Shown here piece by piece: positions 45,801 to 46,320 of a DNA stretch of 46,320 nucleotides; the stretch's first letter is position 1, and every line of letters starts with the position of its first letter. Position numbers and translations under genes: made by a program. The notes beneath the pieces were generated by a model. That model was not told the origin of the DNA. It saw only the letters and a program-made list of their open reading frames with translations, and searched no databases. The stretch comes from a virus (taxonomy: Duplodnaviria; Heunggongvirae; Uroviricota; Caudoviricetes): the IMG/VR virus record IMGVR_UViG_2645727562_000022, positions 1-46,320 of that record; one strand, 5' to 3'.

Positions 45801-45893
45801 TTAAGAAAAATATTTCGAATCATAACAGCATGATGCTGTTGATCAATGAAGAAGCCGCATGTTTTGACTTTGATCTACCTTTTGCGATATCTA

Positions 45894-45913
45894 TACTGTA
45901 CATCCATACAGTA
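45894..45913 (+). promoter_or_regulatory. LexA binding site (SOS box)
   Basis: TACTGTACATCCATACAGTA (CTGT-N8-ACAG), 18 nt upstream of the UmuD'-like start and downstream of a TTGACT -35-like hexamer at 45864-45869. Confidence 0.7.
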
Positions 45914-45930
45914 ATCATCGGAGGCAGATC

Positions 45931-46320
45931 ATGGGATTCCCGAGTCCAGCACAAGACTATGTTGAGCAACGCATATCACTAGACCAGCGCATTATAACCA
46001 GGCCAGCTGCTACGTACTTCATGCGTGCCGGAGCGACACATTACCGCGAAGGAATCCTGAGTGGTGCACTACTGGTTGTTGATGCCTCACTAACTCCATG
46101 TGACGGATCGCTATTGGTTTGCACGGATGAAGGAGAATTCAGGATTAAGCGATACCGAACTCACCCGCAGCCGCATCTGGAGAATCTGGAGAATGGCCAG
46201 CGTGAGAGGTTGCCCGATAAGAACGAAGCATCTGACACATCGAGGCCAGTATTCGGGGTGATCACATACATCATCAACGATGCGCGCTCTGGTGAGTTTG
46301 ATGATTGTCCGGTGATGTGA
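45931..46320 (+). CDS. UmuD'-like protein lacking the N-terminal arm and the catalytic serine
   Basis: MGFPSPAQDYVEQRISLDQ...GEFRIKRYR aligns with E. coli UmuD from Gly25; GGAGG RBS; in-frame stop 60 nt upstream excludes a longer N-terminus; nucleophile position reads His (AGATHY versus ASGDSM); Lys97 equivalent retained. Confidence 0.7.
   Translation: MGFPSPAQDYVEQRISLDQRIITRPAATYFMRAGATHYREGILSGALLVVDASLTPCDGSLLVCTDEGEFRIKRYRTHPQPHLENLENGQRERLPDKNEASDTSRPVFGVITYIINDARSGEFDDCPVM

Follow-up and report, generated by a model that had tools for sequence, protein, structure and literature searches.

The stretch of DNA analyzed here, hereafter the window, is the IMG/VR virus record IMGVR_UViG_2645727562_000022 over its full length of 46,320 nucleotides (nt). 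It represents a complete prophage that extends from an integrase gene to a gene of the humD family, after which a matching contig continues into host genes. The humD-family gene occupies positions 45931-46320 of the plus strand, terminates with a TGA stop codon at 46318-46320, and encodes a natively truncated, UmuD'-like protein of 129 amino acid residues that begins with MGFPSPAQDYVEQRI. We conclude that this gene is very probably a humD carried by the prophage, that it belongs to the HumD family with HumD of phage P1 as its prototype, and that it very probably works by the mechanism proposed below.

The window protein matched the NCBIfam equivalog model NF051876 ("HumD family translesion DNA polymerase") end to end, with residues 1-129 on model positions 1-129, at an E-value of 3.3e-69 and with a score of 230.8 bits against a cut-off of 120. 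With the canonical UmuD model NF007621 it scored 85.6 bits, which is under the cut-off of 110 for that model, and it was thus not classified as a canonical UmuD. The Pfam domain found in the 129-residue protein was Peptidase_S24. In tblastn searches, the protein was 89% identical to its counterpart in HK140, 80% to that in Huey, 76% to that in HK639, 72% to gp26 of N15, and 69% to HumD of P1, P7, SJ46 and D6-like phage-plasmids. Database proteins that are 91-95% identical to the window protein also exist, and one of these, with 94% identity, comes from Enterobacter roggenkampii and is named as a HumD family protein. The gene is therefore already known: it belongs among the ordinary HumD genes, a textbook accessory gene of temperate enterobacterial phages that was first described for phage P1 in 1999 and for which a curated model is available, and is not a new kind of gene.

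The crystallized UmuD' (1UMU) was found by phmmer with an E-value of 3.6e-20. The AlphaFold (AF2) model of the window protein had predicted local distance difference test (pLDDT) values of 81-88 in its core, and its best Foldseek matches were 1UMU, 1AY9 and 8GMT, with UmuD' as the best fold match. A UmuD'-type S24 fold is thus supported both by the sequence match to 1UMU and by the predicted model. In the alignments, residue 2 of the window protein paired with residue 1 of UmuD' in 1UMU, which is Gly25 of full-length UmuD (8GMT_B). Met1-Gly2 of the window protein therefore aligns with Cys24-Gly25 of UmuD, with Met, and not Cys or Ala, preceding the glycine. This agrees with the original prediction, made by a model from the DNA letters, which had placed the start of the reading frame exactly at the cleavage point that gives rise to UmuD'.

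Neither inspection of the frame nor the alignments revealed an N-terminal arm with a Cys/Ala-Gly self-cleavage site in the window protein. A longer arm is closed off because an in-frame TGA stop codon is located at 45871-45873 (plus strand), 60 nt 5' of the start codon, and no in-frame ATG, GTG or TTG occurs between this stop and the ATG at 45931. The Shine-Dalgarno sequence GGAGG lies at 45920-45924 of the plus strand, 6 nt ahead of the ATG. The exclusion of a longer arm, which had been based on this stop codon and the GGAGG motif, was thus correct. The N-terminal sequence MGFPSP is common to 114 of 120 close homologs. The possibility that an assembly error masks a longer open reading frame (ORF), which had been named as one way in which the prediction might fail, was dismissed in view of the uniform start of the family members. 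Some HumD homologs are listed in databases with 9-33 additional N-terminal residues, gained through an upstream in-frame ATG (loci L009, L010 and L013; proteins P0052, P0084, P0099 and P0113). These extensions are related neither to each other nor to the UmuD arm and look like start-codon miscalls.

The gene is preceded by the LexA (SOS) box TACTGTACATCCATACAGTA at 45894-45913 (given without strand), which agrees with the consensus TACTGTATATATATACAGTA at 17 of 20 positions and has perfect CTGT and ACAG arms. No other sequence of the 46-kb window matched TACTGT-N8-ACAGTA, even when up to one mismatch was allowed. About 0.04 such matches are expected in the window, and at least one match occurred in 4 of 100 shuffles. 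The near-consensus LexA box that had been predicted ahead of the ORF is thus present. A second CTGT-N8-ACAG sequence was found at 37114-37129, within an ORF of the tail/baseplate region. It was rejected as a LexA box, as it lacks the TA/TA flanks and the expected number of such matches for the window is 0.8, so that it probably occurs by chance.

A putative humD promoter was indicated by a consensus scan, as a pattern match only. It consists of the −35-like hexamer TTGATC (45870-45875, plus strand) and, after a 16-nt spacer, the −10-like hexamer TATACT (45892-45897, plus strand), and it spans 45870-45897, with the −10 shared with the LexA box that overlaps it. The scan was done on the public contig L004, which is identical in this region, so that position 7940 of L004 corresponds to position 45870 of the window and the −10 hexamer lies at 7962-7967 of L004. 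At the sequence level, a LexA operator in the promoter region of humD, which is expected of a HumD family member, is therefore present.

Box-like sequences also precede other genes of the family. We examined 25 complete HumD-type loci that came from species-representative genomes, and every one of them had a 20-mer resembling the LexA box (14 or more of 20 consensus matches) within 400 nt 5' of the gene. The box was located at most 80 nt from the ATG in 17 of the 25 loci, as it is in the window and in P1, and at about −275 to −300 in the other 8 (L005, L009, L010, L017, L021, L024, L027 and L032). HK140 (L002, 3410-4390) has the distant layout, and in this phage a small ORF of ~80 residues lies between humD and a box ~275-300 nt away, whereas the box in the window stands directly ahead of humD. 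The HK140 box also faces a divergent dinI homolog, and two RecA/SOS modulators may thus share one operator.

Next to the missing arm, the protein differs from UmuD in its nucleophile loop. This loop, A33-G-A-T-H-Y-R39, is encoded at 46027-46047 (plus strand), contains no serine, and is one residue shorter than the A-S-G-D-S60-M-I-D loop of UmuD (compare R-A-G-A-T-H-Y-R-E-G-I in the window protein with K-A-S-G-D-S60-M-I-D-G-G-I in UmuD). The partner of UmuD Ser60 depended on the alignment: it was His37 by phmmer and Thr36 by MAFFT, and Ser60 fell opposite a gap in the profile-profile alignment by hhalign. These three placements are equally defensible, and we claim neither Thr nor His at this position. 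Whichever alignment is chosen, serine is absent from residues 33-40 (AGATHYRE). The codon of Lys73 is located at 46147-46149 (plus strand), and both phmmer and MAFFT aligned this residue with UmuD Lys97, which is the dyad's general base. An intact Ser60-Lys97 dyad with the serine in a G-D/E-S-M loop is therefore lacking, although the lysine is present. The alignment with the UmuD family, suggested earlier as a check, thus upheld the predicted loss of the serine and retention of the lysine, and it additionally revealed that the loop is one residue short; the more specific statement that the serine position reads His did not stand, as it depends on the placement of the gap.

Degeneration of the dyad is general in the natively short branch. 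Among 124 close homologs, the Ser60 column of the MAFFT alignment contained Thr in 109 and Ser in 13, and the Lys97 column contained Lys in 114, with Arg, Cys, Val and other residues appearing in distant natively short homologs. When representatives of 50%-identity clusters were compared, both Ser and Lys were retained in only 2 of 42 natively short homologs, compared to 32 of 40 arm-bearing ones, and the one-residue deletion in the loop was common to 39 of the 42 short proteins. The residues found instead in the short homologs included Thr, Ala, Gly, Tyr, Asp and His at the Ser position, and Arg, Cys, Val and Leu at the Lys position. Consistently, the loop stretch has no consensus in the alignment of the HumD family, whereas Gly58, Ser60 and Lys97 are invariant in the alignment of arm-bearing UmuDs. 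The simplest reading of this decay is that selection is relaxed on a protease site for which no substrate is left: we propose that the Ser-Lys pair decayed because no arm remains to be cleaved. Cleavage reportedly serves only to activate UmuD, as Nohmi and colleagues, whose 1988 article is cited in PMC7092418, are said to have found, and the proposed reading fits with this. The general loss of the dyad in natively short homologs may interest specialists; no mention of it was found in the literature examined, and the 1999 paper on P1 lay outside that search.

The protein also carries a family-specific C-terminal tail. Residues 120-129 (SGEFDDCPVM; 46288-46317, plus strand) extend 10 residues past the end of UmuD and are predicted to be flexible: in the AF2 model, residues 121-129 had a mean pLDDT of 49 (<50 at 125-129) and no secondary structure. 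The tail, which reads N-D-A-R-S-G-E-F-D-D-C-P-V-M in the window protein, is also present in P1 (L001, 2858-2887) and N15 (L003), and the pattern N-D-x-R-x-x-E-F-D-D-x-P-V/C/F-M/I/L is kept in representatives with <50% identity, where Glu122, Phe123 and Asp124 were each conserved in 17 of 24 sequences and Pro127 in 15 of 24. In a 20-sequence family alignment, Asp124 was invariant, and Glu122 and Pro127 were conserved in at least 90%. No tail of the EFDDCPVM type was found in the arm-bearing UmuDs of the homolog comparison, and among 675 ORFs of at least 100 residues the motif was restricted to HumD homologs.

This tail resembles SSB's C-terminal tip, as both have, at an end that is flexible (predicted so for HumD), an acidic F-D-D stretch, then Pro, and lastly a hydrophobic residue. 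The resemblance is incomplete, since most HumD tails end with P-V-M/I/L and only few with P-F (P0126 and P0164), whereas SSB ends with I-P-F, and the proteins that carry the two tails are unrelated. According to PMC7913777, the SSB tip, MDFDDDIPF, recruits more than 17 partners, with many genome-maintenance proteins among them, and according to PMC3401449, Pol V and Pol IV bind SSB physically. On the basis of this sequence resemblance, the HumD tail could imitate the SSB tip and let the phage-encoded pol V subunit join, or compete for, the SSB network at damaged forks, in which case the decay of the dyad would mark a distinct, non-proteolytic branch of S24 proteins; we regard this as an outside chance. 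No paper connecting HumD with SSB or with tail mimicry was found, in a search that did not extend to the 1999 P1 paper; an article on Gifsy-1 that came up had no bearing on the subject. The conserved SSB-tip-like tail may be of interest to specialists, and together with the general decay of the dyad it is the only part of the findings that might be new.

The third hallmark of the locus is the missing polymerase gene. No umuC was found in the 46-kb window, in 8 kb downstream of it, or in the 3 kb around 29 HumD-type loci, and tblastn with the UmuC of a Pantoea umuDC locus as the probe gave no match in the window or in 33 phage or HumD-type loci (L001-L033), whereas the control loci were matched. 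In these control umuD loci, a umuC of ~420 codons begins 2-5 nt past the stop codon. The same division was apparent across 80 genomic loci, in which the HumD-type genes start with MGFPSP and have small or unrelated ORFs next to their 3' end, while the canonical umuD genes encode a ~23-residue arm with a Cys/Ala-Gly site and mostly have a ~420-residue ORF 2-5 nt past their stop codon. HumD-type genes and canonical umuD loci coexist in several species, for example in Citrobacter sp. OP27 (L014 and L068) and Kluyvera sp. 142359 (L033 and L052), and most of these umuD loci precede a umuC-sized ORF. Because several species carry both kinds of gene, a UmuC partner encoded by the host is plausible. 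With no phage-borne umuC, the partner would therefore have to be a host UmuC.

The search downstream of humD, which had also been suggested, was possible because the public contig L004 is identical to the window over the last 8.4 kb and runs past the humD stop codon. It passes beyond this stop into host genes, and humD is therefore the last gene of the prophage. The host flank (L004, 8391-16390) contains genes for an MFS transporter, a mannitol-dehydrogenase-family protein, YdfZ, a GntR regulator, a short-chain dehydrogenase (SDR) and a peptidase M3. This flank corresponds to the ydfJ-ydfI-ydfZ-ydfH-ydfG-dcp neighborhood, which lies beside the Qin prophage in Escherichia coli K-12. The earlier view that neither a partner polymerase nor the prophage boundary could be assessed thus proved too cautious as to the partner and the host side. 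A comparison of the window start with the sequence past humD on L004 for an att repeat gave only the 10-nt match TGATGGGGCA, which is unconvincing.

The mechanism that we propose starts from what the analysis showed, namely the sequence features of the locus, the family membership, the fold, the lack of umuC, the family-wide LexA box, and the purifying selection described below. In the lysogen, host LexA bound to the SOS box that overlaps the −10 hexamer would keep humD off. Upon DNA damage, RecA would become active and LexA would cleave itself, the CI-type repressor of the prophage would be cleaved in response to the same signal, and humD would be transcribed. These two steps, repression by LexA and induction by damage, are supported by sequence. 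The 129-residue product would be made in the UmuD' fold without the 24-residue arm, and the slow RecA-stimulated self-cleavage would thus not be needed. A HumD dimer could then assemble with host-encoded UmuC and RecA into a pol V-like translesion polymerase, and do so earlier than the host pathway. Without the arm, the Ser-Lys pair would have lost its task and decayed, and in this protein the outcome would be the shorter loop without serine in which the lysine is kept.

The original prediction had described the product as an active UmuD' mimic that is regulated only by LexA and bypasses the cleavage checkpoint. As a description this is sound, and the gene is a full-length member of the family. 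It is also essentially the published description of P1 HumD, and therefore not new, and the terms "active" and "regulated only by LexA" derive from homology. The same applies to LexA binding, dimerization, binding to UmuC and RecA, and mutagenesis, which we infer for the window protein from P1 HumD at 69% identity. Several points weigh against the proposed role. The functional claims go back to the annotation of the P1 record and to a secondary citation, and the putative promoter is a weak consensus match, with 9 of 12 positions. Moreover, P1 humD is non-essential for lytic growth, and the benefit to the phage is thus unclear; the conserved tail has no role in a simple picture of a UmuD' surrogate; and a host umuC for the prophage in the window is presumed.

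The prophage-borne humD might instead be a decaying remnant, a umuD from which the 5' end, the active site and any function have been lost. Such a view would account for the lack of a catalytic serine and of a partner gene, for the position at the extreme end of the prophage beside the attachment site, for the unannotated 3' fragments of related genes in other phage records, and for the dispensability of P1 humD. It was, however, contradicted by the selection data. The ratio of nonsynonymous to synonymous substitutions (dN/dS) was ~0.04 in comparison to the copy in a prophage of E. coli SC407 (87% nucleotide identity). This closer copy was used because synonymous sites are saturated in comparisons with HK140 and more distant copies, which makes dN/dS unusable there; the protein is still 70-89% identical to these copies (88-89% for HK140 and L005). 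The gene is thus under strong purifying selection and is maintained, and the dN/dS of 0.04, together with the conservation of the protein despite synonymous saturation, argues that it is not a remnant. In addition, the ORF is intact and has its own Shine-Dalgarno sequence, promoter-like site and LexA box, the latter found in 25 of 25 loci, and both the MGFPSP start (114 of 120 homologs) and the family tail are conserved. The idea of a remnant is therefore disfavored and hardly credible.

Two other roles would leave the gene functional. HumD could chiefly dampen or modulate activated RecA instead of serving as a polymerase subunit. As an uncleavable look-alike of LexA and UmuD, it would sit in the groove of the RecA filament, keep out LexA, UmuD or the repressor of the phage by competition, and so tune the SOS response or prophage induction in the manner of DinI or PsiB. 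A RecA-binding S24 fold with nothing to cleave would suit such a role, LexA control would provide negative feedback, and HumD was not seen with umuC in any examined locus. P1 HumD reportedly binds RecA filaments, according to the work of McLenigan from 1999. In HK140, humD also adjoins the divergent dinI homolog, with the sole LexA-type box found in the locus between them. However, P1 HumD is annotated as complementing UmuD', for which productive assembly with UmuC is needed, HumD and UmuD have conserved residues in common, and these residues are distributed across the whole core and not on a RecA-contact surface alone. We consider this role improbable. Alternatively, HumD could manage polymerases or the replisome through its acidic tail, which would mimic the SSB tip so that the protein docks, alone or with UmuC, on SSB-binding proteins or competes with SSB. 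The conservation of the tail below 50% identity, its absence from arm-bearing UmuDs, its predicted lack of structure and its restriction to HumD homologs among the 675 ORFs would suit such a function, as would the number of SSB partners (PMC7913777) and the binding of Pol V and Pol IV to SSB (PMC3401449). The link itself is a resemblance of sequence, most HumD tails end in P-V-M and not in the P-F that is gripped by SSB partners, no paper was found that makes the HumD-SSB tail connection, and the tail could equally be a degradation signal or a contact to UmuC or RecA. We consider this second role very improbable. A prophage-borne UmuD' counterpart that is made upon LexA cleavage remains our preferred reading.

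In the prophage, the integrase gene (27-1307, minus strand) comes first and is followed by genes for an excisionase, RecT, a CI-type repressor and a DnaB-like helicase, and then by a myovirus-like morphogenesis block that is related to Pantoea phage PA-1. The tail genes include those for a DUF3383 protein, a tail-fiber collar protein and a tailspike. After the tail fiber come the 751-residue tailspike with a pectate-lyase-type domain (42476-44731, plus strand), an acyltransferase-3 family gene in divergent orientation (44760-45800, minus strand), and humD as the last gene. The tailspike and the acyltransferase look like a pair that recognizes and modifies the O-antigen (serotype conversion), located just ahead of humD. 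The promoter-like site of the acyltransferase gene does not overlap the LexA box. The CI-type repressor (9751-10452, minus strand) combines a helix-turn-helix with an S24 domain and has kept the Ala-Gly site, GDSM and FKK. As judged from these motifs, the prophage carries one intact self-cleaving S24 protein, CI, and one degenerate one, HumD. Scans of the window for transfer RNA genes and against Rfam detected no RNA genes. The gene order thus places humD in a temperate phage, as is expected of the family, and its place at the end of an enterobacterial prophage is typical for cargo.

The 3' part of humD-like genes was also encountered on its own. Fragments that correspond to query residues 45-128 or 73-128 occur, mostly unannotated, in many records of lambdoid and Stx phages, including Stx-converting phages, mEp234, Sf101 and EC.P3; those in the Stx records are located close to the ends of these records. 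The putative attP of HK140 (L002, 4360-4506) overlaps the 3' end of the humD-type gene. These findings suggest that humD-like sequence is often disrupted in the course of integration or recombination.

If the preferred reading is correct, HumD-type genes let a prophage supply an active pol V subunit upon cleavage of LexA. As a result, the lysogen or the replicating phage may show higher tolerance of damage and higher mutagenesis, which is of relevance to mutation under stress in hosts of the genera Enterobacter, Citrobacter and Escherichia.

Among the closest known systems is HumD of phage P1 (P1_gp103). It shares with the window protein the length of 129 residues, 69% identity over the full length, the MGFPSP start at the position of UmuD Gly25, the C-terminal NDARSGEFDDCPV(I/M) tail, the lack of a umuC partner, and the presence in a temperate phage. 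As described, reportedly, in the abstract by McLenigan from 1999, P1 HumD is of the size of UmuD', has no cognate umuC, restores mutagenesis in strains that are unable to make UmuD', dimerizes, and binds both UmuC and RecA filaments. Such functions are known for P1 HumD only. The GenBank record of P1 annotates a LexA binding site that ends 19 nt before the humD ATG, compared to 17 nt in the window, carries the note "DNA repair; functionally complements E. coli UmuD'" on humD, and lists lxr and phd/doc, and no umuC, as its neighbors. PMC9603915 describes humD as a LexA-regulated SOS gene, and P1 HumD, published as a UmuD' homolog that is short by nature, is treated in PMC7092418, which cites the 1999 article (J Bacteriol 181:7005). 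The two genes differ in the loop, which is RAADSHHREG with a serine (A-D-S-H-H) in P1 and RAGATHYREG without one in the window, and in their location. P1 humD lies on a plasmid-prophage between lxr and phd/doc, whereas the window gene is the last gene of an integrated myovirus-like prophage, after the tailspike and acyltransferase genes.

HK140_028, gp26 of N15, gp23 of phiKO2, and the genes of HK639 and Huey likewise resemble the window gene, with 67-89% identity, a cargo position after tail-fiber genes, and an upstream LexA box. In HK140, the humD-type gene is located directly at attP, beside int. Escherichia coli UmuD and UmuD' (1UMU, 1AY9, 1I4V and 8GMT) share with the window protein the S24 fold, the lysine and the control by LexA, which is predicted for the window gene, and the N-terminal segment GFPSPA-DYVEQRI matches at 12 of 13 positions. 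In contrast to the window protein, UmuD has a 24-residue arm, undergoes self-cleavage at Cys24-Gly25 by Ser60/Lys97, is co-transcribed with umuC, and lacks the acidic tail. MucA, ImpA, SamA and RumA, which according to PMC7092418 are SOS-regulated relatives of UmuD on mobile elements, are similar to the window protein in this respect. Unlike it, these proteins possess an arm that can be cleaved as well as an intact dyad, and the gene of each shares an operon with a polymerase gene of its own (mucB, impB, samB or rumB). The arm-bearing representatives in our homolog set behave like these MucA-type proteins.

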